Shown piece after piece: positions 1 through 63,272 of a DNA stretch of 64,000 nucleotides (its first letter is position 1; every line of letters starts with the position of its first letter). Source of the stretch: Shigella phage pSs-1; sequence record KM501444; one strand, given 5' to 3'. Position numbers and translations under genes: made by a program. Under the pieces are notes generated by a model. It did no database searches, had not been told where the DNA came from, and saw nothing but the letters and a program-made list of their open reading frames with translations.

Positions 1-14
1 TTTTGAAATAAAAA

Positions 15-34
15 GGGAGAGCCTCGGCTCTCCC
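15..34 (-). terminator. intrinsic terminator hairpin (8-bp stem GGGAGAGC/GCTCTCCC) followed by U-run on minus strand
   Basis: inverted repeat gggagagc-ctcg-gctctccc; plus 1-14 is A/T-rich giving UUUUUAUUU after the stem on the minus transcript. Confidence 0.55.
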
Positions 35-39
35 TAAAA

Positions 40-189
40 TTACTGCATGACTGTGATAACTGTCATGATAACGCGTTGAATTCCGAACGCAAGAAGACCT
101 CCTGCTACGGCTGGAACAACACCTAAACCCGCCAGTAAAATGCCACCGGATACTAATGCAGCGCTTGTAATACCAATGAATGGACTCAT
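40..189 (-). CDS. small hydrophobic protein (49 aa, Gly/Ala-rich TM)
   Basis: ATG at 187-189 overlaps gene 52 stop (ATGA); 49 codons to TAA 40-42; below ORF-track size cutoff. Confidence 0.4.
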   Translation of the reverse strand: MSPFIGITSAALVSGGILLAGLGVVPAVAGGLLAFGIQRVIMTVITVMQ

Positions 190-1514
190 TTGATTTCCTC
201 TAAATCTTTAGTATATTCGGTAACTACATCAGTAGTTTTCCAATATTCGTTTTCTTCTTTTTTAGCTTTAGCTTCTTCAGCAAGTTTCTTTGCTTCGTCG
301 GAAGTCATATGAAAAATGTTCATTCCAACTAGTTTATCAACATAAGAAGAATACATATCAATTTTAGAAAGTTCTTCGGTCAGTTCTTTGCGAGTTTTAC
401 CCTGTACAACAATTTCACCTGAAATTACTTTCTTAATGAAATGTGCCTTGGCAAAGGCTAAACGAAATGCTGATTCAGTTTCTTTGATTTTGTTATCAAT
501 TCGTTTTTGGACATAAGTTTTACGAACTTCAACGAAGTCTTTGATTAAATCAACTACGTTATCGTAAACTTGTAGTTTTCCTTTCTCATTAATAACGGTA
601 ATATTCTGGGAACGACGCTCAATCAACCCGAAGTCTTTCATAATTTTTGCATGACGTTCTTCTTCGTTATCACTCAAAGAGTATTCTTTACGGAATTTAA
701 CTTTAAAGCCAAAACCATGCTCACCGCAAGCATCATCCCACGTAATGAAACCTTTATCTTCAAGCGGGTCTAAGATTTTACTCACATAAGTTTCACGATC
801 ATACTTATACGGAATCTCAGTGATATGCATTTGAGTTCGTGAAGTAAACTTGTATGTTCCACGAATTTCATATTGACCGTCAATTTCAACGACTTCACCA
901 CGAAATTCTGGGAATTCTACCTTAGGTTTAGTTACTTTCTTTCCTTGAAGAGCTTGCAATACAGCTTTCTTGACAGAAGAAACACTATGAGGAAGAATGT
1001 AAGTTGCATAACCAGTTGCAATACCGGAAACACCGTTAAGAAGAACAGTAGGAATAATAGGCAAATAGAAAGCAGGCGGAATGTGTTCTTTATCTTGATG
1101 TACCGGAGCATATTCAGTATCTTTATATACATTATAGAAATTTTTACTTACACGAGCAAAAATATAACGACTTGCCGCTGCTTTTTGAACGGTACGAGAA
1201 CCAAAGTTTCCTTGACCATCTAACAAAGGAAAGTTATTATTCCAAGTGTTAGCCATCAAAGCACCTGCGTCTTGCGCAGAGTTTTCACCATGATGATATC
1301 CAAGGTCAGCTACACCACCTGCAATAGAAGCGAGTTTGTGAAACTTATCTTTATTTCCTCGTGCCAAATCAAGAGCTCGAGCAATAACAAATCGTTGAAC
1401 TGGCTTAAATCCATCAATCATATTTGGGATAGCACGATTTTCAACCGTGTACATAGCATAAGCCAATGCTTCATTATCAATGATACTTTTTAAATCGCGA
1501 TTATTCAGTTGCAT
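186..1514 (-). CDS. 52: DNA topoisomerase II medium subunit gp52
   Basis: 442-aa ORF, N-terminus MQLNNRDLKSIIDNEALAYAMYTVENRAIPNMIDGFKPVQRF matches T4 gp52 as recalled (GyrA-like); ATG verified. Confidence 0.93.
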   Translation of the reverse strand: MQLNNRDLKSIIDNEALAYAMYTVENRAIPNMIDGFKPVQRFVIARALDLARGNKDKFHKLASIAGGVADLGYHHGENSAQDAGALMANTWNNNFPLLDGQGNFGSRTVQKAAASRYIFARVSKNFYNVYKDTEYAPVHQDKEHIPPAFYLPIIPTVLLNGVSGIATGYATYILPHSVSSVKKAVLQALQGKKVTKPKVEFPEFRGEVVEIDGQYEIRGTYKFTSRTQMHITEIPYKYDRETYVSKILDPLEDKGFITWDDACGEHGFGFKVKFRKEYSLSDNEEERHAKIMKDFGLIERRSQNITVINEKGKLQVYDNVVDLIKDFVEVRKTYVQKRIDNKIKETESAFRLAFAKAHFIKKVISGEIVVQGKTRKELTEELSKIDMYSSYVDKLVGMNIFHMTSDEAKKLAEEAKAKKEENEYWKTTDVVTEYTKDLEEIK

Positions 1515-1651
1515 AAATTTACCATACTAGTGAATGTAGTGCCATAATAACATCAGAAATGAAAAGCACGACTTGAATTAATCCGAACATTACTCCATAA
1601 TATAGTGCTACCAATAAAGTAGCAAGGGCTAATGAATAGCCCAAGATTTTC

Positions 1652-1810
1652 TTAATCATTAGTAGATAACAACACAAATGTTAAATATGCACACATACCC
1701 TGGGCTAAAGCTTGTGAAAACACACTGCTAGCATCGATACAGATAGTTAAAACACATGCTACTATCCAACAAATAAATGAAATAACTCCTAATAATTTTG
1801 CGATATTCAT
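1652..1810 (-). CDS. small membrane protein, Ac-like paralog (52 aa)
   Basis: ATG 1808-1810 with GAGGAG SD; hydrophobic; paralogous to adjacent 51-aa ORF (shared SVF.QA.AQG motif). Confidence 0.5.
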   Translation of the reverse strand: MNIAKLLGVISFICWIVACVLTICIDASSVFSQALAQGMCAYLTFVLLSTND

Positions 1811-1820
1811 AATATTCTCC

Positions 1821-1976
1821 TCAACTATTTTTAGAACCAATGTACGCGAATAATGATAAAATCGCTAATACACCCTGAGCTGATGCTTGCAAAAATACTG
1901 AAGTTTCTCCGGTTATTACTGTTCCGATGCATAAAAAGAACCAACAGAAAAAGGCTATACCGTGAACAAATTTCAT
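1821..1976 (-). CDS. small membrane protein, Ac-like (51 aa)
   Basis: ATG 1974-1976, SD upstream, stop TGA 1821-1823; 51 aa hydrophobic, same size and position as T4 ac (position/size inference). Confidence 0.5.
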   Translation of the reverse strand: MKFVHGIAFFCWFFLCIGTVITGETSVFLQASAQGVLAILSLFAYIGSKNS

Positions 1977-1983
1977 ATTTTCC

Positions 1984-2064
1984 TCACTGGCGTCCGAAGA
2001 CGCCTTTGGTTTTAAGATTGTTACGATAGAACTGCATCACATGTTCGTTGTGGAAATTACTCAT
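1984..2064 (-). CDS. stp: Stp peptide (26 aa, suppressor of three-prime phosphatase; host restriction/anticodon-nuclease modulator)
   Basis: translates exactly to [26 protein letters not shown], the T4 Stp sequence as recalled; start overlaps ndd stop. Confidence 0.9.
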
Positions 2065-2519
2065 TAATATGCCTGCAAAACAAATTTAAAGTTATCAGCT
2101 AACATACGGTTCATTTCTTCAAGTGTTTGATACTCAGAATGATGATTACGAGTAAACGCCAAAGCTAACTGACCTTTTCCAAATCCTGTCGTCAAAGGTT
2201 TCATCTTAGAAGCAGGAAGATAAAATACTGTATATGGAACATTATTATTTGCAATAGTACGCGCAAGCTGAGACCGACGCTGACGAATATGACTTAGAAC
2301 TGCACTGAATCCTTGCTTAGAACGCTGATTACCTACATAAAATCGTGCAGATACACACGGACTATCAAATGGACCACCAAATTTACTCACTAAAAAGTAA
2401 AATCCAGGTGTAGATAAAATGTCTTTATGTGGAGTTCCAAAAACCCATTCACCGCCCTTGATTGTACCAATAACAGTAGCACCTGCATTATTCAGATCAG
2501 TAACAGTCATGTATTTCAT
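2064..2519 (-). CDS. ndd: nucleoid disruption protein Ndd
   Basis: 151-aa ORF at the T4 ndd position immediately upstream of stp; size matches T4 Ndd. Confidence 0.75.
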
Positions 2520-2578
2520 ATTAATTTCCTCTAATTATTTTCTACTCCAAGGCCGCATGAATACACACGGCCGATAAA

Positions 2579-2794
2579 TTAATCGTCGCAGTCGACGCTC
2601 AATTCCCAGAACTCTTCTACAGTATAAGTTTCAGTATCGTTTTCAATACAGAAACGTTCATTACTGTTATTTGCTAAAGTAGCATTAACTGTCATTTTAT
2701 CGCTAGTGCTCTTAAGAGGTGAAATACGAATTAACTGATCACCACTATCCAAGCAAAAAATTTCGCCAACTTTTACATCTTTAAAAATTTTCAT
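2579..2794 (-). CDS. hypothetical protein (71 aa), ndd.x region
   Basis: ORF track; compact minus-strand packing. Confidence 0.45.
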   Translation of the reverse strand: MKIFKDVKVGEIFCLDSGDQLIRISPLKSTSDKMTVNATLANNSNERFCIENDTETYTVEEFWELSVDCDD

Positions 2795-2909
2795 AATTCA
2801 CCTCAGGGAGTATAAAATCCAAATGCAGTTGTTGACCATCCCATCCAATACGGAAAATTTGCACCAACGTAAAACATGAAAATATAAAACCAAATGCTTA
2901 GTAAATTCA

Positions 2910-3107
2910 TTATTTTACACCATTCCAAATTGTTTCAACAACAGATTTTAAGCCATTTTGATGAATGTCCATTCCGACAACCGCCATCAAATAAATTCCA
3001 ACTACAACTGAACCTAAGGCAAAAATCAGCATGAAAATGAATAAAGCCGGAAAAATATTATCGAAAAACCATTCAATAAATGTAAAAGCACTGCGTTTAC
3101 GCTTCAT
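2910..3107 (-). CDS. small membrane protein (65 aa)
   Basis: ATG 3105-3107 with GAGG SD (track start 3128 is upstream alternative); hydrophobic core. Confidence 0.45.
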   Translation of the reverse strand: MKRKRSAFTFIEWFFDNIFPALFIFMLIFALGSVVVGIYLMAVVGMDIHQNGLKSVVETIWNGVK

Positions 3108-3114
3108 ATTTTCC

Positions 3115-3228
3115 TCACATAAATCCAAAGTAAGCGTTTAATACATCAATCATTAAAACGATTGGGAATATACTCAAAACTACTAGTATTATAACTACAT
3201 TCCATATAGCTTTAACAATCTTTTTCAT
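3115..3228 (-). CDS. small membrane peptide (37 aa)
   Basis: ATG 3226-3228 preceded by GGAGG and an early promoter; track ORF 3115..3363 is split by that promoter. Confidence 0.4.
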   Translation of the reverse strand: MKKIVKAIWNVVIILVVLSIFPIVLMIDVLNAYFGFM

Positions 3229-3254
3229 TTTCTGTTCCTCCGTAGTTGATAGGG

Positions 3255-3290
3255 TAATAATACCACAGAGGAACAGTCTTGTAAACAACT
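3255..3290 (-). promoter_or_regulatory. T4-type early promoter (minus strand)
   Basis: plus-strand taataataccac...(14 nt)...gtaaac = minus GTTTAC -35 and extended TATTAT -10; A/T UP element at 3291-3300. Confidence 0.6.
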
Positions 3291-3809: not shown

Positions 3810-4367
3810 TTAAATGGAAAGATACCATCCGTTGTAGTTGCTTTTTCTTACAACCTTACGAAGGTCTTCTCTATCACCGATGAACTTCGGAGTGTACTGG
3901 ATGACACCTGGGTGAATTTCTTTAGTGTTGAATATAATTATACAGTCAGCGACCTGATGATTCAGAATAGGCCCTAGATTTATTCCAGAACCATATGGAT
4001 ACTCTCCGCTGCATCCTGTTGTTACAGAAATCCAACGTGAGTCAGTTTGATGTGTCTTAACTTCTACACGAAGCCCGCAGTATCTTGGATGCGCCAATAC
4101 ATCCCATGCGTATGTATACGGGTCATTAACATCCTCTTGGCCTTTGTTAACATACCCGCTTAGCCAATCTGCTACAAAAAACTCTGCGTACACCGCGATA
4201 CGACATCTTTCGATAACTTCTGCTTTATCCTGGTTCGGGTTTTGTTTTAAAGAGTATCTTGCTGTATCAGCAATTTTGACCTTCATTTCACTAGTCAAGT
4301 CACTGTTCGATAGGGTAAATGTCGGAATCTGAAATAGTCTCTGTAAACCCGGATTCGTTTTCTGCAT
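3810..4367 (-). CDS. denB: endonuclease IV DenB
   Basis: 185-aa ORF at T4 denB position between ndd region and rIIB; size matches T4 DenB. Confidence 0.75.
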   Translation of the reverse strand: MQKTNPGLQRLFQIPTFTLSNSDLTSEMKVKIADTARYSLKQNPNQDKAEVIERCRIAVYAEFFVADWLSGYVNKGQEDVNDPYTYAWDVLAHPRYCGLRVEVKTHQTDSRWISVTTGCSGEYPYGSGINLGPILNHQVADCIIIFNTKEIHPGVIQYTPKFIGDREDLRKVVRKSNYNGWYLSI

Positions 4368-4629
4368 TTAGACTTTCCTTTTTACCGCTGAGATAAGCGT
4401 TATATACTTTAAGAGTGCCGTAATAAATTCGGTCATTTTCATCTAAAGACTCACGGTCAAGTTCATCGAGTTCCTTTTTATCCATGACTATAATATCATT
4501 GCAGTAAAGAAACCCAAGTTTTTCGTGACCAAACTCAAATTTATTGCAGTACACAATATTAGCGTGATGATTTCCGTGCAGTTTAATCTCTTTTATGTCG
4601 GAATCACCGATATTCATACAATAAATCAT
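4300..4629 (-). CDS. hypothetical protein (109 aa), denB.1 position
   Basis: ORF track; overlaps denB start by 68 nt. Confidence 0.45.
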   Translation of the reverse strand: MIYCMNIGDSDIKEIKLHGNHHANIVYCNKFEFGHEKLGFLYCNDIIVMDKKELDELDRESLDENDRIYYGTLKVYNAYLSGKKESLNAENESGFTETISDSDIYPIEQ

Positions 4630-20764: not shown

Positions 20765-20777
20765 CGGTAAAATGAAA

Positions 20778-29875: not shown

Positions 29876-32572
29876 TCAGCCAAACAGGAAGTCTAACGAA
29901 GCTTTTTCCTCATAGTCCATACCTGCCGATTCACACATACCAGCAAGAGGTTTAACAAACGATTTTTGGAACAAAGTTGAGTAGTCAATCCAAGATAGTA
30001 CATCAGAACGAATTTCTTTTGGAAGTTCTGTGCCTGATGGCCAAGCAATGCACTTATCACCAAATGGATTTCCTTCACGTAATGGAAGAACCATTACCTT
30101 ATTTCCATCCAAAATTGGAGCTACACCTAAACCGCTAACAGCTCGACGATAAGTTAGCACACCACGAATATGGAATGGACATTTAAATCCTGGCCAACCT
30201 TTATCATCATATTTCGCTATATCGTTCGCAGTTTTTACTTCAGCAATAACTTTATAGTCAAGTTGACGATATTCTTTCTCAAAGTTCTTGTAGTATTCTT
30301 GGACAGACTCTTCGCCTTCTTGAAGAATACGACGAATACTTTCTTCGAGAGCTTCTTGTACTGCTTTTGGTGTTGAACTCTGCTGAGTTTCCATACCCAT
30401 GATTTTTAAATGCGGTTCGGCAAATCGCTTATCTTCCATATCATAAACGTTCAGAGCATAACGTTTTTTCGCTTTCCAAAATCCACCGACACCCTTTGAA
30501 CCAAGTGGAGGGCAAGAAATAGCTTCACGGTCCATATGCATCAGATGCTCGCGGTTATTCATATAATCACATAACTCACGATATGCAGCATCAATCATAG
30601 GTTCCATCTTTTTCTTACCAAACTGATTCATGAATTCAACTAAATCATTTTGTTCTTTAAAGCGATCAAGACCTACTTTTTCAATAACTTTATCTACACA
30701 AACGTATACCGAATCAGTATCACCTGCTGCGATGAAATCTTCACCATTAGTTCCACACACTTTATTTAGATACTCATTAATTTTACGAGCAATCCACTGA
30801 ATACCAACTTGACCGAAAATTGTGATAGCAGTAGCATTTCGCAAATCATAGTAACGGAAATGAATATTACCAAGAGCACCATAAAGACTGTTAATAAGAA
30901 TTTTACGGTTCAACTGATTTGTGTTAGCAAGCGTAGCTGCTTTTTCACATTCTTCGATCAGACTGTTAAGAACAGATTCAGTGTAATTCGATAATTCGTT
31001 TAAGAAATCATCACTGAACTTAACATATCGTTCAACTTCTGGTTTAGTTGAACAAGACCCTGCACCTTTCATAATAATCTTTTTAATAGCTTCGGCATTC
31101 ATTTCTTCCGCGAACATTTTCTTTTTCCAATCTTTACGTTGGAAAAATACTTTAGCGATTTCCTTTGGAATGATACCTTCTTGGTGCTTATCATACATCC
31201 ATCCATTCGGAGAGCAAGAATATTCATCACTTGGCTTAGGAGCTGTTCCTGCGATATATTCATGAATTGGATGAACTTTAAACTGCCCACGAATAGTCTC
31301 AGGACTAATGTTAACCTGACGAATAATGCTAGGATACAGAGACGTCAAGTCAAAACTCATAATGTATCGACGAGCAATCGGTTTAGGTTCAAACACAAAT
31401 GCACCTGGAAAACTCTGTTTAACGTGCGAACCTTGTTGAGGAATAACCTTATGTTCACCTTTCAGTGAGTTAAAAATAATAGCATCCCAAGTTTTAATAG
31501 GACTCATTACACCAGAAAAAGGCATTTTAGCGTAATAAGACATACTTAAAACTAGATCGATAAACCCACGAATTTTATCAATTGCTTGAACTGATTCTAC
31601 GTCAATGATGTTATAACTAATGTATCGTTGATGATTAGTCTCACGAAGTTTATTAATAGGACCATCGTACGGCAATTTACCTTTTTTGGTTTCATGTTGA
31701 GCAACTGATTCCAAAGAGAACGATGGCAAATTAGTAAATGCGAATTTCTTGTACAAATCTAAATAATCAAGAATAGATACGCCATCAATAGAATAAATTT
31801 CTTTGCTACCGTACATATTTTGAATTAGTTTAGATTTTACTCGACCGATTGGAGAGAAGCGTTTCATACTACGTTCACCGAGAACCATTTTAACACGATT
31901 CATGATATACGGAACGTCAAATCCCTCAATATTCCAACCGGTAAAAATAGCAGGTCGTTTCTGTTCCCAGAGATTAATATATTCCATGAGCATATCACGC
32001 TCATTATCAAATGGCATATAAATTACTCGGTCAAGAATTTCTTGAGGAACTTCATCACCACCTTCACAGTCAAGCTTAGCAGCTAACTTTGCATCCCATT
32101 TTGATACTGAACCGTACATTGAATTCAACAAATCAAAGACGTAAAAACGATCGTCAATTGAATCATAATGAGTGATAGCATCAATTTCATATTCTGCTTT
32201 CATTGGGTCAGGAAATTTATCACCAGTAACCTCAATGTCACAGTTAGCTACACGAACAAATTTTCGGTCATAAACAATTTCTGAACCATACGTATCACTG
32301 ATGTAAGCAAGTTTAAAATCGTTCATACCGAGAGCTTCGAGACCGATGTCTTCCATTCGCTTCATCCAGTCTCGTGCATCTTTCATTGATGGAAATTTTT
32401 GAGGAGCACAATTTTTACCATAAATGTCTTTGTATTTTGACTCTTCCTTACAATGTCTAAACATAGTCGGAAGATATTCTACTTCACGGGTACGTTCCTT
32501 TCCGTTTTCATCAATATAACGTTCAACAATATTATTTCCGACTGTTTCGATAGAGATATAAAATTCTTTCAT
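29876..32572 (-). CDS. 43: DNA polymerase gp43 (family B)
   Basis: 898 aa as T4 gp43; MKEFYISIETVGNNIVERYIDENGKERTREVEYLPTMF. Confidence 0.93.
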   Translation of the reverse strand: MKEFYISIETVGNNIVERYIDENGKERTREVEYLPTMFRHCKEESKYKDIYGKNCAPQKFPSMKDARDWMKRMEDIGLEALGMNDFKLAYISDTYGSEIVYDRKFVRVANCDIEVTGDKFPDPMKAEYEIDAITHYDSIDDRFYVFDLLNSMYGSVSKWDAKLAAKLDCEGGDEVPQEILDRVIYMPFDNERDMLMEYINLWEQKRPAIFTGWNIEGFDVPYIMNRVKMVLGERSMKRFSPIGRVKSKLIQNMYGSKEIYSIDGVSILDYLDLYKKFAFTNLPSFSLESVAQHETKKGKLPYDGPINKLRETNHQRYISYNIIDVESVQAIDKIRGFIDLVLSMSYYAKMPFSGVMSPIKTWDAIIFNSLKGEHKVIPQQGSHVKQSFPGAFVFEPKPIARRYIMSFDLTSLYPSIIRQVNISPETIRGQFKVHPIHEYIAGTAPKPSDEYSCSPNGWMYDKHQEGIIPKEIAKVFFQRKDWKKKMFAEEMNAEAIKKIIMKGAGSCSTKPEVERYVKFSDDFLNELSNYTESVLNSLIEECEKAATLANTNQLNRKILINSLYGALGNIHFRYYDLRNATAITIFGQVGIQWIARKINEYLNKVCGTNGEDFIAAGDTDSVYVCVDKVIEKVGLDRFKEQNDLVEFMNQFGKKKMEPMIDAAYRELCDYMNNREHLMHMDREAISCPPLGSKGVGGFWKAKKRYALNVYDMEDKRFAEPHLKIMGMETQQSSTPKAVQEALEESIRRILQEGEESVQEYYKNFEKEYRQLDYKVIAEVKTANDIAKYDDKGWPGFKCPFHIRGVLTYRRAVSGLGVAPILDGNKVMVLPLREGNPFGDKCIAWPSGTELPKEIRSDVLSWIDYSTLFQKSFVKPLAGMCESAGMDYEEKASLDFLFG

Positions 32573-43808: not shown

Positions 43809-43905
43809 AACTTTGTGAAAATTATTTTAGGGAATGATAAGAAGGGAACGATAGTTAGAATGGTAATATACAGAATGTGAGAAAGAAAGGCCCAGAGGGC
43901 CCATC

Positions 43906-54941: not shown

Positions 54942-55030
54942 TCATCAGTTTAATTCTAGTCATCTTTTTAATGGCAGTCCATATAATCTATTTCTGAACT
55001 GCCTTTTTGTCATAGAAGTCCTCTTATGAA

Positions 55031-55999
55031 TTATTTCAAAAGAGTAACCTCAGCAATTTCTTCCCAACCGTTTTTGTCGGTCATAATAAAGTCAGCAAGA
55101 TAAAGAGCAGTACGCAGTGAAACATTGCGTAAACGATTAACATTAACTTTCATCCATGATAATGCTTTATAAGTTTCTTCATCAGAAAGACCGCGCTTTT
55201 GCATCATGTCAGTTGAAAGAATAACATCTTCAACCCTGACCATAATTTCTTCATTAGTGTGAACACCCAAATCTAAATAAACTGAGCGGGACACTAATGC
55301 TTGTAAATGTGGAGCAAGTTTAGTACCACGGTCTAATTCGCGGTCAATGTCAACGTTTGTGATAAAAACAATCGTTCCTTTAAATTCAAACTCACGCTCA
55401 ATGCCTTTTTCTTCTAAGTAAGAAGACGCAGTGCTCCAGCAGACTTTACGGGTCTCTCCGGTGTCCAGAGCAGCTTTTAGAAGATTAAGAATGTCCATAT
55501 CAGAGAAAACATCCACATCATCAATCAAAAGGACAGAATTCTCTTCACGATTATTCCAAAGCTGCTCATAAAGACCAATACCAGAGATTTTACCATTAAT
55601 GCTTTTATATTCAATGTATCCAATATCATTTGCTTTATTTAAAGCTTTATCTAAAGAATACGTTTTACCAATACCTGCTGCTCCTGAGATAATTAATGAA
55701 CGAATATTTCCGTTAATAATACCATTCGTCATCATTCCCATAACATTAAATCTTTTATTAATGCGGGTTTTCATATCTTCATACGATTCTTTAACTTCTT
55801 CAACTTTTACACCATCATATGAAATATCTGATTTGTAAACCCAAACACCGCGACGTTTACCGTCAATTTCAACAAAAACTTTACCATCTCCTTGTGCATC
55901 TACCGGAGCATTATCTGGGAACCATTCGCCTAAGAGCTCAAAAGTTCCAGAGATTTCTTTACCGAAGTAGATACCCTTATTGATAGTTACAGTTTTCAT
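55031..55999 (-). CDS. AAA+/P-loop ATPase (322 aa)
   Basis: ATG 55997-55999 with GGAG SD; Walker A GAAGIGKT, Walker B LLIDDVD; about 110-aa N-terminal extra domain. Confidence 0.6.
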   Translation of the reverse strand: MKTVTINKGIYFGKEISGTFELLGEWFPDNAPVDAQGDGKVFVEIDGKRRGVWVYKSDISYDGVKVEEVKESYEDMKTRINKRFNVMGMMTNGIINGNIRSLIISGAAGIGKTYSLDKALNKANDIGYIEYKSINGKISGIGLYEQLWNNREENSVLLIDDVDVFSDMDILNLLKAALDTGETRKVCWSTASSYLEEKGIEREFEFKGTIVFITNVDIDRELDRGTKLAPHLQALVSRSVYLDLGVHTNEEIMVRVEDVILSTDMMQKRGLSDEETYKALSWMKVNVNRLRNVSLRTALYLADFIMTDKNGWEEIAEVTLLK

Positions 56000-56080
56000 T
56001 TTATTCTCCAAATCCGTATCAGTTGATAGTTGTATAGTACCATAAAGCTTTATGCTTGTAAACTGTTTTGTGAAAAAATT
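55995..56080 (-). repeat. promoter/early-start cassette repeat (copy 2), near-identical to 29691-29780
   Basis: shared about 85-bp sequence including SD, -10, -35 and UP element. Confidence 0.6.
56031..56063 (-). promoter_or_regulatory. T4-type early promoter
   Basis: gtatagtaccat...gtaaac with UP element. Confidence 0.6.
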
Positions 56081-56093
56081 TTGAAATAAAAAA

Positions 56094-56111
56094 GGGAGCC
56101 CGAAGGCTCCC
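56094..56111 (-). terminator. UUCG hairpin terminator
   Basis: gggagcc-cgaa-ggctccc followed by UUUUUUAUUU on minus. Confidence 0.55.
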
Positions 56112-56113
56112 TA

Positions 56114-56359
56114 TCATTTATAATAACTTCGATGGTTTTCAAGATAAACCCTCTCAAGGAAGTCATCCCAAAAACACATGTCTACTTTTTGCTGCATACC
56201 GTTCTTAGAAGCTTCAATGGATGCTGCTTCTACTTGATCGACCACATCTTCCAAAAACTCTTGAACAGTTTTAAATGGATGTTTACCCAACTTCACGTCG
56301 AGAATAAATGGAGCGTCTTGAAGTGGATAGACTAAGTCACCAGTTTTGTAAATTTCCAA
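56114..56359 (-). CDS. hypothetical protein (81 aa); frame overlaps 3' end of upstream nucleotidyltransferase
   Basis: ORF track start is TTG with no clear SD; frame stays open about 29 codons upstream into the NTase gene. Confidence 0.35.
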   Translation of the reverse strand: MEIYKTGDLVYPLQDAPFILDVKLGKHPFKTVQEFLEDVVDQVEAASIEASKNGMQQKVDMCFWDDFLERVYLENHRSYYK

Positions 56360-56388
56360 TAGTTGGAGTCCACCACGGCAAGCATGAC

Positions 56389-57126
56389 TCAGAGCTTTCC
56401 AGTCAATGCCCTCATTCGCTTCAGCCTTACGAGCACGTCGCCGTATTCAGCATCAAGTTTATTCAAAGATTGCTTAAGCTCGATAAGAGAAAGCGTTGTT
56501 TGATATTTACGACCCAACACAGTGTAGAACGTTTGTGGGCCTGTTTTCTCATGATTATGGAATACCCATTCGCAGAACTCGTTCTCTGGAAGACGATGCT
56601 TAATATCTTCAACTTTAGTTCGACGCTGCTTAATGGAACCGTCTTCTTGGTAATCAACCCATTGCTCAGGGATTTGATTAACTACTTTCAATATATCACG
56701 TAATGCGGCCAAACGAGAACCTTTAACACCGTATTTAGAAGCTTGCTTGCGAACATATCCTAAGTAGGATTTCATGTTGGTCGTATAAAAACGAGAACGG
56801 TTGTCTTGAATAAACTTCCATACATCAGGCAAATCAGATTTAACTACTAGTTCCGGTGGAGTGTGGAGCATATCCAATGCTACAGTTTCACCATCTGCTG
56901 CTAATTTAAAGAAATACTTAAGACTGTATAGTTCATGGTCAATATCATCTTTAGTGTTTTTAGATGATGTGTTGTTAGTGTTTTTACTCATATGCTCTTT
57001 AACATTTCCAATAAGAATATCGCGAGCAGGAGGAACAAAGATTTCTTTAAAATCTACATCAGATTCTGGAGTAGAAGTTCCATAAAGATGACTACCAAAA
57101 TAGCTTTTCATTACTGTTTTCATCAT
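56389..57126 (-). CDS. pol-beta-superfamily nucleotidyltransferase (245 aa)
   Basis: N-terminal GSHLYGTSTPESDVDF fits the G[SG]-x(9-13)-DxD NTase signature. Confidence 0.55.
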   Translation of the reverse strand: MMKTVMKSYFGSHLYGTSTPESDVDFKEIFVPPARDILIGNVKEHMSKNTNNTSSKNTKDDIDHELYSLKYFFKLAADGETVALDMLHTPPELVVKSDLPDVWKFIQDNRSRFYTTNMKSYLGYVRKQASKYGVKGSRLAALRDILKVVNQIPEQWVDYQEDGSIKQRRTKVEDIKHRLPENEFCEWVFHNHEKTGPQTFYTVLGRKYQTTLSLIELKQSLNKLDAEYGDVLVRLKRMRALTGKL

Positions 57127-57596
57127 TCAGCCTTATATTCAATAACAGGACATACTTTAGCTTTACGCGCTTTTAAAAATTCGACGATAATAGATTTCTT
57201 GGGTTGAATAGGAGGTAAACCTTTATACGCCCTATCAATATTTTCTACATGTAAAGCATAATCCTTTTTCCATTTATAATCTTTATATTTTTCATGCAGT
57301 TGTGCAGGAATAACAAATGAACCAATAATAAGTAAAACAAGCAAAATGGCAAGTATAAATGCTGATGGAATAAGAGTCCATAAACTACCAAAAATAAGCC
57401 ATTTCTGCATGATTTCTGCACAGATAATAGTTAGACCTGCGAGTATAGTACATCCGAAAAAAGAAACGAAAAATGTAGGGATAACAATAGACCAAAAGTA
57501 TGCACACAGTGTCTTAGGTCGTTTCCATTCATCATTAAACAGTTTGAATAATTTATAGTGCCAAGAGTTTTCATTAATAATCATAATTATAATCAT
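57123..57596 (-). CDS. membrane protein (157 aa)
   Basis: ORF track; hydrophobic helices. Confidence 0.45.
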   Translation of the reverse strand: MIIIMIINENSWHYKLFKLFNDEWKRPKTLCAYFWSIVIPTFFVSFFGCTILAGLTIICAEIMQKWLIFGSLWTLIPSAFILAILLVLLIIGSFVIPAQLHEKYKDYKWKKDYALHVENIDRAYKGLPPIQPKKSIIVEFLKARKAKVCPVIEYKAE

Positions 57597-58114
57597 CCTT
57601 TCATTGAAGGTGTAACAGTTGTTAAATACTTAATCATAGCTTCAGCTTCTGATTTTGATAATGAAATTTCTCCATTATTTTGACGAATAGAAATAAAATC
57701 CGGATGACGGTCACCACCAGCTTTTAAAACACACATATAAGTATCAGTTTCATCTTCAATATTTGAAATGATTGAAGCAGTTCCGCATGAATGTGGTTTT
57801 TGATAAATCAATGCAGCTTTTCTTCCACCGTTTGACTGTTCATAAACTTTTAACACATCAAACAAATCGCTTCTTTTATCAATAGCTAAGATGTTGTTTT
57901 CATCTTCAATGTTAAATCCTTCGGATACTTCATAAAGTGTCACCCATAAATCACCTATATCGATAGTAGCATTTCCTTTTCCACGACTTTCAAGAATGTG
58001 ACAAATTTTCTTAATTTCATCATAACTCATTTTAATAATATCATCTCCTTGACTAAGGAAGATGTCATTTTTAAATTCAACGCGAATTAAACCACTTCCA
58101 CTTGAAATAAACAT
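57593..58114 (-). CDS. hypothetical protein (173 aa), paralog of next ORF
   Basis: C-terminus ISLSKSEAEAMIKYLTTVTPSM vs VTFTKDEAIALKTYLDSVIPTM; shared GFNIE motif. Confidence 0.5.
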   Translation of the reverse strand: MFISSGSGLIRVEFKNDIFLSQGDDIIKMSYDEIKKICHILESRGKGNATIDIGDLWVTLYEVSEGFNIEDENNILAIDKRSDLFDVLKVYEQSNGGRKAALIYQKPHSCGTASIISNIEDETDTYMCVLKAGGDRHPDFISIRQNNGEISLSKSEAEAMIKYLTTVTPSMKG

Positions 58115-62928: not shown

Positions 62929-63272
62929 CTAGTACTCAATCCTCGATTATAAGAATCTACTAAACGGTCAACCATTGAATGACAAGCGGCTTTATCTTTC
63001 TCCTCCGCAACTGAACATTCTAAGGTATTCCACTTTTTAGCATATCGTTTTAACAATGTATCATTTTTGTATCTGCTTGATTTATCTCTTTCTCCGTCTT
63101 TATATGCATATATTAATTTCTGTGCAAATTCAGCTTGGCATGCTTTATTTTTCCCGCAATAATCCGCGGCAGTACGATTTACATACTCTCTAATTTCAGT
63201 ATATGATGTATCTGCTGATGCAGAAGCAGAAAATGAAATTAATCCTATACATAAAACCAAAATTTTAGTCAT
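62925..63272 (-). CDS. secreted Cys-containing protein (115 aa)
   Basis: Sec-type signal peptide MTKILVLCIGLISFSASASA; 4 Cys in mature part. Confidence 0.5.
   Translation of the reverse strand: MTKILVLCIGLISFSASASADTSYTEIREYVNRTAADYCGKNKACQAEFAQKLIYAYKDGERDKSSRYKNDTLLKRYAKKWNTLECSVAEEKDKAACHSMVDRLVDSYNRGLSTR

Follow-up and report, generated by a model that had tools for sequence, protein, structure and literature searches.

The window analysed here, that is, the whole stretch of 64,000 nucleotides, comprises bases 1-64000 of the genome of Shigella phage pSs-1 (164,999 bp; T4-like, genus Tequatrovirus) and aligns collinearly with phage sb2 (97.4% identity). On its minus strand the ORF list places a 245-codon ORF for a nucleotidyltransferase (NTase) at 56389-57126, followed by an 81-codon ORF at 56114-56359 that starts with TTG. 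The shorter ORF is read in the -1 frame relative to the NTase ORF (offset 2), and its frame continues open for 29 further codons upstream, up to a TGA at 56447-56449 on the same strand, which gives an open frame of 110 codons in total and sets the 5' limit for any switch from one frame to the other. The two frames overlap at 56389-56446, a stretch of 58 nt comprising the final 18 sense codons of the NTase ORF and its stop codon, and neither ATG nor GTG is found in the 29-codon extension. The TTG lies 30 nt downstream of the NTase stop codon, and the sole Shine-Dalgarno-like element before it is GGTGG, positioned 10 nt upstream. This is the layout that had been described in the original prediction, which noted a TTG-initiated ORF with neither an ATG nor a convincing Shine-Dalgarno sequence, and a frame open for about 29 codons across the end of the NTase gene.

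The surroundings of the two ORFs are those of a known T4 gene. As with T4 nrdC.11, the window gene lies within the nrdC.1-nrdC.11 block, directly upstream of nrdC.10, with the same terminator after it. The downstream neighbor at 55031-56011 matches phrog_1250 (nrdC.10 type, an AAA-type ATPase), and the conserved position at the downstream end of the block is thereby kept. Immediately upstream the two phages differ, since a gene for a 157-aa membrane protein is found in the window where T4 has the homing-endonuclease gene mobD. The terminator is an intrinsic hairpin on the minus strand at 56093-56112, with 8 bp of which six are G-C, then a run of T, and the identical sequence follows the intact nrdC.11 genes of phages KNP5, UGKSEcP1, and ESh16. 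Because this hairpin comes directly after the native nrdC.11 stop codon, it marks the true end of the nrdC.11 gene. A sub-threshold Rfam match to the L20-leader also overlaps the hairpin.

Both ORFs are present in the existing annotation. The 81-aa sequence exactly matches 'hypothetical protein pSs1_00107' (AIS73417.1), and a 244-aa version of the upstream ORF exactly matches pSs1_00108. In Supplementary Table S1 of the pSs-1 paper they appear as ORF107 (56114-56359) and ORF108 (56389-57123), uncommented, and each is given there as matching Shfl2 proteins (PMC4789750).

The first of the two ORFs belongs to the RlaP family. The 245-aa product matches Pfam PF10127 (RlaP) with 41.1 bits (cut-off 23) over residues 7-135, similar to the 43.8 bits of the intact KNP5 protein, with the alignment covering only positions 23-142 of the 249 in the profile. 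The name of the family derives from gene neighborhood with RNA ligase. No RNA ligase was found near the window gene, the immediate neighbors of which are the AAA-type ATPase and the membrane protein, and none is annotated in the T4 nrdC block. The N-terminal part contains an NTase core of the Pol-beta type, with FGS...DVD at residues 10-25 (FGS-x10-DVD) and ALD at residues 83-85. When tested against the catalytic signature hG[GS]-x9-13-Dh[DE]h plus a third conserved Asp, the sequence gave YFGSHLYGTSTPESDVDF, in which G10, S11, D22, and D24 are invariant among 49 homologs, as is D84 of VALDM, the putative third catalytic Asp. All of these signature residues are kept in the 245-aa ORF of the window. 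The second ORF with its upstream extension also falls within one family with the first. In profile searches the open frame of 110 codons aligns with phrog_388 at positions 235-339 (E = 4e-45) while the 245-aa ORF matches the earlier part of the same profile, such that the two fragments cover consecutive parts of it; P0001 matches phrog_388 positions 36-339 with E = 1.5e-135. Since the 110-codon frame and the 245-aa ORF match one family profile, the open frame is not there by chance. PDB sequence searches gave no relevant match, and no useful matches were obtained with the PADLOC and NCBIfam libraries.

Comparison with intact orthologs places the origin of the split at a single nucleotide. In KNP5, UGKSEcP1, ESh16, sb2, and T4 the gene is a single CDS of 1011-1014 nt, encoding a protein of 336-337 aa, and the alignment with related phages thus returned the single ORF that had been expected at about 330 aa. 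The T4 ortholog (NP_049709.1, 336 aa, 'nucleotidyltransferase') has about 94% nucleotide identity over its whole 1014 nt, and both window fragments align with it end to end. When the T4 and sb2 ORFs are compared with the window by tblastn, each gives two abutting HSPs in two frames. The sole length difference between the window and the intact orthologs is one gap column at coding-strand nt 689, in codon 230, where the intact genes have GGC GAA CGT and the window has GGC GAC GT, converting codon 230 from GAA (Glu) to GAC and then shifting the frame. On the genome the lesion is at 56438, with a single A on the coding strand (T on the plus strand) in place of the AA (TT) of intact relatives. It is this missing base by which the window copy differs from T4 nrdC.11 and is read as 245 + 81 codons; an uninterrupted ORF of about 336 aa is absent from the window.

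The locus can thus be partitioned along the native gene. Codons 1-229 (56440-57126, minus strand, within pSs-1 ORF108) are the native N-terminal part, which is established by the ORF list, the PF10127 match, and collinearity with T4 NrdC.11 and sb2. After the lesion at 56438, which was located by the alignments, the translation compared with the intact protein gives a frameshifted tail at 56389-56439 on the same strand, made up of 16 aberrant codons (DVLVRLKRMRALTGKL) and a TGA stop at 56389-56391, so that the sequence as it stands encodes 229 native residues followed by 16 wrong ones. Read from the translation, its C-terminal end is ...AEYGDVLVRLKRMRALTGKL. Native codons 231-337 persist out of frame as a C-terminal remnant (56117-56437, minus strand), assigned by phrog_388 and predicted to be helical in the AlphaFold2 (AF2) model. 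If one base is restored at the lesion a 337-aa ORF results that has two amino acid differences from ESh16 or from KNP5 (~99% identical), and the 325 nt downstream of the lesion have no difference at all from the intact ESh16 gene. We are therefore highly confident that both ORFs are one nrdC.11-type gene broken by one missing base, and the suggestion of a single longer gene that an indel or a sequencing error has interrupted is upheld. In other words, what is found here is a commonplace case of a conserved and already known T4-type accessory gene whose copy is disrupted by a frameshift or was mis-sequenced, and there is no mechanistic novelty in the nrdC.11 split of pSs-1.

It follows that the 81-codon ORF (56114-56359, minus strand) does not have the properties of a gene in its own right. 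In the alignment its TTG falls on a Leu codon inside the intact orthologs, and its product would be without the most conserved motif of the C-terminal part, and we consequently reject an independent gene with an unusual TTG or GTG start, which was the second option in the original prediction. From the sequence, the ORF is an annotation artefact of the split, namely the longest start-to-stop stretch in an orphaned frame. A more elaborate possibility is that the two products are a functional split of the enzyme, in which the 245-aa protein and a separately initiated 81-aa protein, possibly made by re-initiation at the TTG 30 nt past the first stop, reassemble the NTase. The weak GGTGG element could be taken to assist such initiation, and Yersinia phage fPS-65 reaches an identical 81-codon ORF through an independent nonsense mutation. 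However, GGTGG is part of a conserved Arg-Gly-Gly coding sequence in all intact genes and is no evidence of a ribosome-binding site. Moreover, the 81-aa product would lack residues 231-256 (26 residues), including the RARKAEANEGIDWKALSHA.R motif, which directly follows the lesion and is near-invariant even among divergent T4-like homologs. The window nrdC.11 has no compensating changes, and about 740 relatives keep a single ORF, the exceptions being sb1 and sb3, which are probably templated, as discussed below. We regard a functional split as extremely improbable.

The other way in which the two frames could be used is by recoding, where a programmed -1 frameshift, transcriptional slippage, or bypass would join them to give a near-full-length protein. 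The downstream frame does lie in the -1 register of the NTase frame and runs open through the junction, and bypassing is known for T4-type phages from the annotation of gene 60. Against this, neither an X XXY YYZ heptamer in any frame nor a homopolymer run of at least four is found in the 58-nt overlap or in the 61 nt at 56449-56389 that take in the upstream TGA, in agreement with the earlier statement that programmed frameshifting is not supported. Recovery of the motif would need a shift exactly at codons 229-231 (GGC GAC GTG), where re-pairing is not available, and an Rfam scan of 55000-58000 gave no family at threshold. The two-frame layout is also not kept in about 740 phage records or in the best 120 homologs. 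Transcriptional slippage, which usually occurs on a run of at least six A or T, was rejected because there is no homopolymer at the junction. We assign recoding almost no probability, and, if all explanations other than a deletion in the DNA or an artefact of the record are taken together, they are very unlikely to hold the answer.

The intact form of the gene prevails among relatives. The best 120 of 1790 protein homologs are 303-343 aa in length and none is near 245 aa. A 100-nt query over the junction matched 99 phage records, and all 30 of the matches listed span 101 nt. The frameshift-junction peptide matched 745 records and, among those listed, the matches are in two pieces with one extra base, apart from sb1 and sb3, meaning that the additional base is present in about 740 other phage records. 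Exact-pattern scans for the junction covered IMG/VR, GTDB genomes (one for each prokaryotic species), and JGI metagenomes. They yielded two matches only, both in metagenomes, which were rejected as true carriers since the contigs are unrelated and the matches are due to chance. Neither the phage records nor the IMG/VR, GTDB, and JGI scans turned up an independent genome or metagenome with the nt-689 deletion.

The likely consequence for the protein can be considered in light of the RlaP enzymes. Two enzymes of this family from Pseudomonas were characterised in a 2025 preprint, which also places T4 NrdC.11 in the family, in cluster 5 of the SSN (PMC12776372). The Pseudomonas enzymes attach one or two NMPs to the 3'-OH ends of RNA, with a preference for damaged RNAs, and the RlaP structure has an N-terminal NTase domain and a C-terminal helical domain with a cleft between them, with the last helix packing on the NTase domain (PMC12776372). 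The window protein is only distantly related to Pseudomonas fluorescens RlaP, with which it shares the G-S...D-x-D motif plus third Asp and the arrangement of an N-terminal NTase followed by a C-terminal region that is predicted to be helical. RNA 3'-end activity is known only for the Pseudomonas RlaP enzymes, and, unlike in the P. fluorescens enzyme, the helical domain is out of frame in the window copy. An AF2 run with 49 close homologs gave a poor overall model (mean pLDDT 55.8) in which the NTase domain was unmodelled and residues 213-335 are predicted as helical with pLDDT of ~50-86, and in this model the lesion is inside the first helix.

We propose, with a little better than even confidence, that the deletion is present in the phage DNA and that it constitutes a loss-of-function allele of recent origin in an accessory gene that is dispensable. 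With an interrupted ORF, the window nrdC.11 is a disrupted copy rather than a working member of the family as written. In the proposed mechanism, translation from the normal start would yield the 229 native residues with the catalytic G-S...D-x-D plus third-Asp core, add the 16 wrong residues, and then stop, and the last 107 residues would not be made in meaningful amount. The truncated protein would thereby lose the helical domain, which forms one wall of the RNA/NTP cleft in the crystallised RlaP. Since this domain walls the cleft and contributes a last helix that packs against the NTase domain, the truncated NTase would most likely be inactive or unstable, by analogy with a homolog that is distant and in the light of a model of the phage protein that is itself poor (mean pLDDT as given above).

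A deletion in the DNA is consistent with several properties of the window and of the gene. The nrdC.11 gene is the sole frame-broken gene in the 64 kb, among the 104 T4-derived and 137 sb2-derived ORFs that were projected onto it. The other 1-nt indels relative to sb2 are all between genes, though about 91% of the window is coding, and the two of them that were tested proved to be natural polymorphisms, one shared by 10 records and the other by 21, from many different laboratories. With the other indels being intergenic and the two tested ones being shared polymorphisms, the consensus looks clean and is without scattered indel errors. We therefore reject the idea of an indel-riddled assembly of the window, in which there is one frame-broken gene only. 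The 7-nt difference at 63217 is a defect of sb2 and not of the window. As to dispensability, T4 tolerates deletion of the nrdC.11-mobD.3 block (PMC9825161). Base substitutions have also knocked out nrdC.11 elsewhere: Yersinia phage fPS-65 has a stop at codon 255 (CAA>TAA), and a phage contig of GCA_019566135 has one at codon 132 (TAC>TAA), which recurs in a separate assembly of SRR15323627. In phage slur07 one A is lost from an A5 run at nt 170. In fPS-65, slur07, and the GCA_019566135 contig, as in the window, a single point lesion splits nrdC.11 into two called ORFs, and in fPS-65 the second of these is the same 81-codon TTG ORF, but none of the three lesions is the nt-689 deletion. The absence of any difference from the intact ESh16 gene downstream of the lesion means that it is either very recent or not real.

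That last alternative has to be taken seriously. The deletion may exist in the record only, as an under-call of a 2-base run by the Ion PGM that was kept in the CLC consensus, with the nrdC.11 of the phage itself being intact and encoding 337 aa; this we consider a substantial possibility, although one of somewhat less than even probability. It fits the platform, which is prone to indels, as pSs-1 was sequenced with an Ion PGM 314 chip and by Sanger sequencing and was assembled with CLC (PMC4789750), and it agrees with the uncommented listing of ORF107 and ORF108, both with matches to Shfl2 proteins. It would also account for the perfect ORF that is obtained by restoring one base, with its 325 identical nucleotides downstream, and for the deletion being seen in none of the independent genomes, neither in the approximately 740 phage records nor beyond chance in the IMG/VR, GTDB, and JGI scans. 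Consensus errors of Ion Torrent data are typically in long homopolymers, however, and the lesion sits in a 2-mer. An error here would also have to be the only one to break a frame in 64 kb of a consensus that otherwise looks clean, with small indels that lie between genes and, where tested, are naturally shared, and in a gene for which genuine knock-outs exist in other phages. It is on these grounds that we continue to lean toward a deletion in the DNA.

Two further records bear directly on this choice. Those of phages sb3 and sb1, isolates from Kolkata, have the exact same deletion and the same truncated CDS annotated, and the paper on the sb phages describes de novo Illumina assembly. Orthologs that are divided into two genes at the same boundaries, named in advance as the observation that would speak against a single broken gene, are confined to these two records, and both look templated on pSs-1. 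Their nrdC.11 alleles differ from that of pSs-1 at 55 and 58 sites (5-6%), and from each other at 61, with the SNPs nearest the lesion only 17-18 nt away in sb3 and 4-5 nt away in sb1. Downstream of the lesion, the differences in the restored frame are 8:1 and 10:0 synonymous to non-synonymous, and with almost all of them being synonymous the deletion looks 'fresh' on three different backgrounds. In addition, the records of sb1-sb4 all begin at the very nucleotide at which pSs-1 begins, and over its first 3000 bases sb3 matches pSs-1 with 100% identity, where the next-best of 728 records reaches 97.7%. Stop codons interrupt the essential DNA polymerase gene 43 in sb1, sb2, and sb4. The simplest reading is that the deletion in sb1 and sb3 comes from templating on the pSs-1 record and is not independent confirmation. 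Given the discordant alleles 4-18 nt from the lesion, the shared start, and the stops in gene 43, we have downgraded these records from the independent confirmation for which they might be taken, and they lend at most weak support to a real allele. With sb1 and sb3 appearing templated, the split is absent from independent genomes.

Propagation from a pSs-1 template also fits with a deletion that was never in the phage. On the other hand, sb3 calls other 1-nt indels relative to pSs-1 as well as SNPs 17-18 nt on either side of the lesion, and a missed insertion at this one site is not the default expectation. We had at one stage regarded several of the intergenic indels as private to pSs-1, with their sharing by sb3 reflecting an indel-specific reference bias, and this idea was dropped as two of them are common natural polymorphisms.

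A more far-reaching reading is that the nt-689 deletion is a real allele that circulates in T4-like phages infecting Shigella, from Korea (pSs-1) and India (sb1 and sb3), and together with the independent stop at codon 255 in fPS-65 it would represent a recurrent, selected removal of the helical domain. Escape from a host sensing system, or a catalytic core with altered specificity, are possible reasons for such selection if it were true, but we think it very improbable that it is. In the preferred reading of a recent deletion in the DNA of pSs-1 the biology is modest, being a further example of T4-like phages that can do without nrdC.11 when propagated in the laboratory. Should the deletion be real, pSs-1 would be a natural null for the role in RNA repair, directed against the damage of anticodon nucleases, that is proposed for phage RlaP.

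The importance of the result lies chiefly in the annotation. ORF107 and ORF108 (YP_009110915.1 and YP_009110916.1) should be merged into a single feature that is marked as frameshifted or as a pseudogene. The 81-aa 'protein' is already the seed of a cluster in which various nrdC.11 fragments are mixed, and should not spread further as a family of its own. The records of sb1-sb4, which appear to be templated on pSs-1 and have stops in essential genes, are not usable as independent evidence. For sb1 and sb3, the strings by which sequencing reads tell the deletion from the intact AA are GGCGAACGT versus GGCGACGT.

The nucleotidyltransferase gene nrdC.11, which in pSs-1 (56114-57126, minus strand) lacks one base at 56438 in codon 230, is also interrupted in other records. 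In the Yersinia phage fPS-65 (LR215724.1, 1736-2746) codon 255 is changed from CAA to TAA, a knock-out independent of that in pSs-1, and the remnants are a 253-aa ORF and the same 81-codon TTG ORF as in pSs-1, annotated as 'Thioredoxin, phage-associated'. The fPS-65 stop lies 25 codons from the pSs-1 lesion and represents a second truncation in the C-terminal region of nrdC.11. Two further copies are also split. In slur07 (LN881732.1, 1250-2259) a run of five A residues is shortened to four at nt 170, giving products of 73 and 252 aa, and a TAC to TAA change at codon 132 yields 130 and 199 aa at positions 1090-2100 in GCA_019566135.2 and Logan SRR15323627, two assemblies that both come from one sample. 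The pSs-1 81-mer falls together with these nrdC.11 fragments in a mixed protein cluster of 30 members.

The surroundings of the gene also vary. Upstream of nrdC.11, T4 has mobD, which encodes an HNH homing endonuclease, whereas the window contains a 157-aa membrane-protein ORF (phrog_944, 57123-57596) with a stop codon that shares bases with the start codon of nrdC.11 (ATGA); near the start of this ORF are six additional bases (57589-57594) that are absent from the Shigella phage records sb2 and sb3. On the other side, between nrdC.11 and nrdC.10, UGKSEcP1 (2704-3113) and fPS-65 (2863-3272) carry two additional small ORFs, one of 49 aa and one of 87 aa that matches DUF4031, whereas the window has just a 102-nt spacer with a terminator (56012-56113). 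At 56078-56241 (minus strand) the Rfam model of the ribosomal protein L20 leader gives a hit below threshold (29.3 bits, gathering score 58.7, E = 0.005). This hit, most likely due to chance, overlaps the 3' end of nrdC.11 as well as the terminator hairpin.

Among the sb records, sb1 and sb3 share the nrdC.11 deletion. Gene 43, which encodes the essential DNA polymerase (29876-32572 in the window), is uninterrupted in the window, sb3 and T4, but in-frame TAA codons interrupt it at codons 502 and 853 in sb1, 197 and 203 in sb2, and 178 in sb4, every one arising from GAA or AAA, and many further essential genes are in pieces in the sb1 and sb4 annotations. The sb1, sb2 and sb4 records contain base errors. 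The sb3 record (PQ666541.1) is identical to the window (100.0%) over exactly its first 3 kb (1-3000 in both), beyond which identity falls to ~97-98%; the runner-up to sb3 over the same 3 kb of pSs-1, among 728 records, reaches 97.7%. Because of this identity, and because all four sb records share their start base with pSs-1, the sequences suggest that the sb records were built with a reference sequence, despite the published description of the assembly as de novo.

At 3810-4628, sb3 is one base short relative to the window (~4371), such that denB and the upstream ORF are fused into a 272-aa CDS, whereas the window has the normal layout with denB (185 aa) separate from a 109-aa ORF. The N-terminus of the vs gene differs by 7 nt between the window (63217-63223) and sb2 (~14215). 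The window Vs has the normal 115 aa with a start resembling a signal peptide, while sb2 has lost the 7 nt and its product is 106 aa with a different start; the defective copy is that of sb2, not that of the window. Two single-base intergenic indels that initially seemed private to pSs-1 are both shared natural polymorphisms: 10 records have the C deletion at 43855, and 21, from many laboratories, show the A5 state at 20775.
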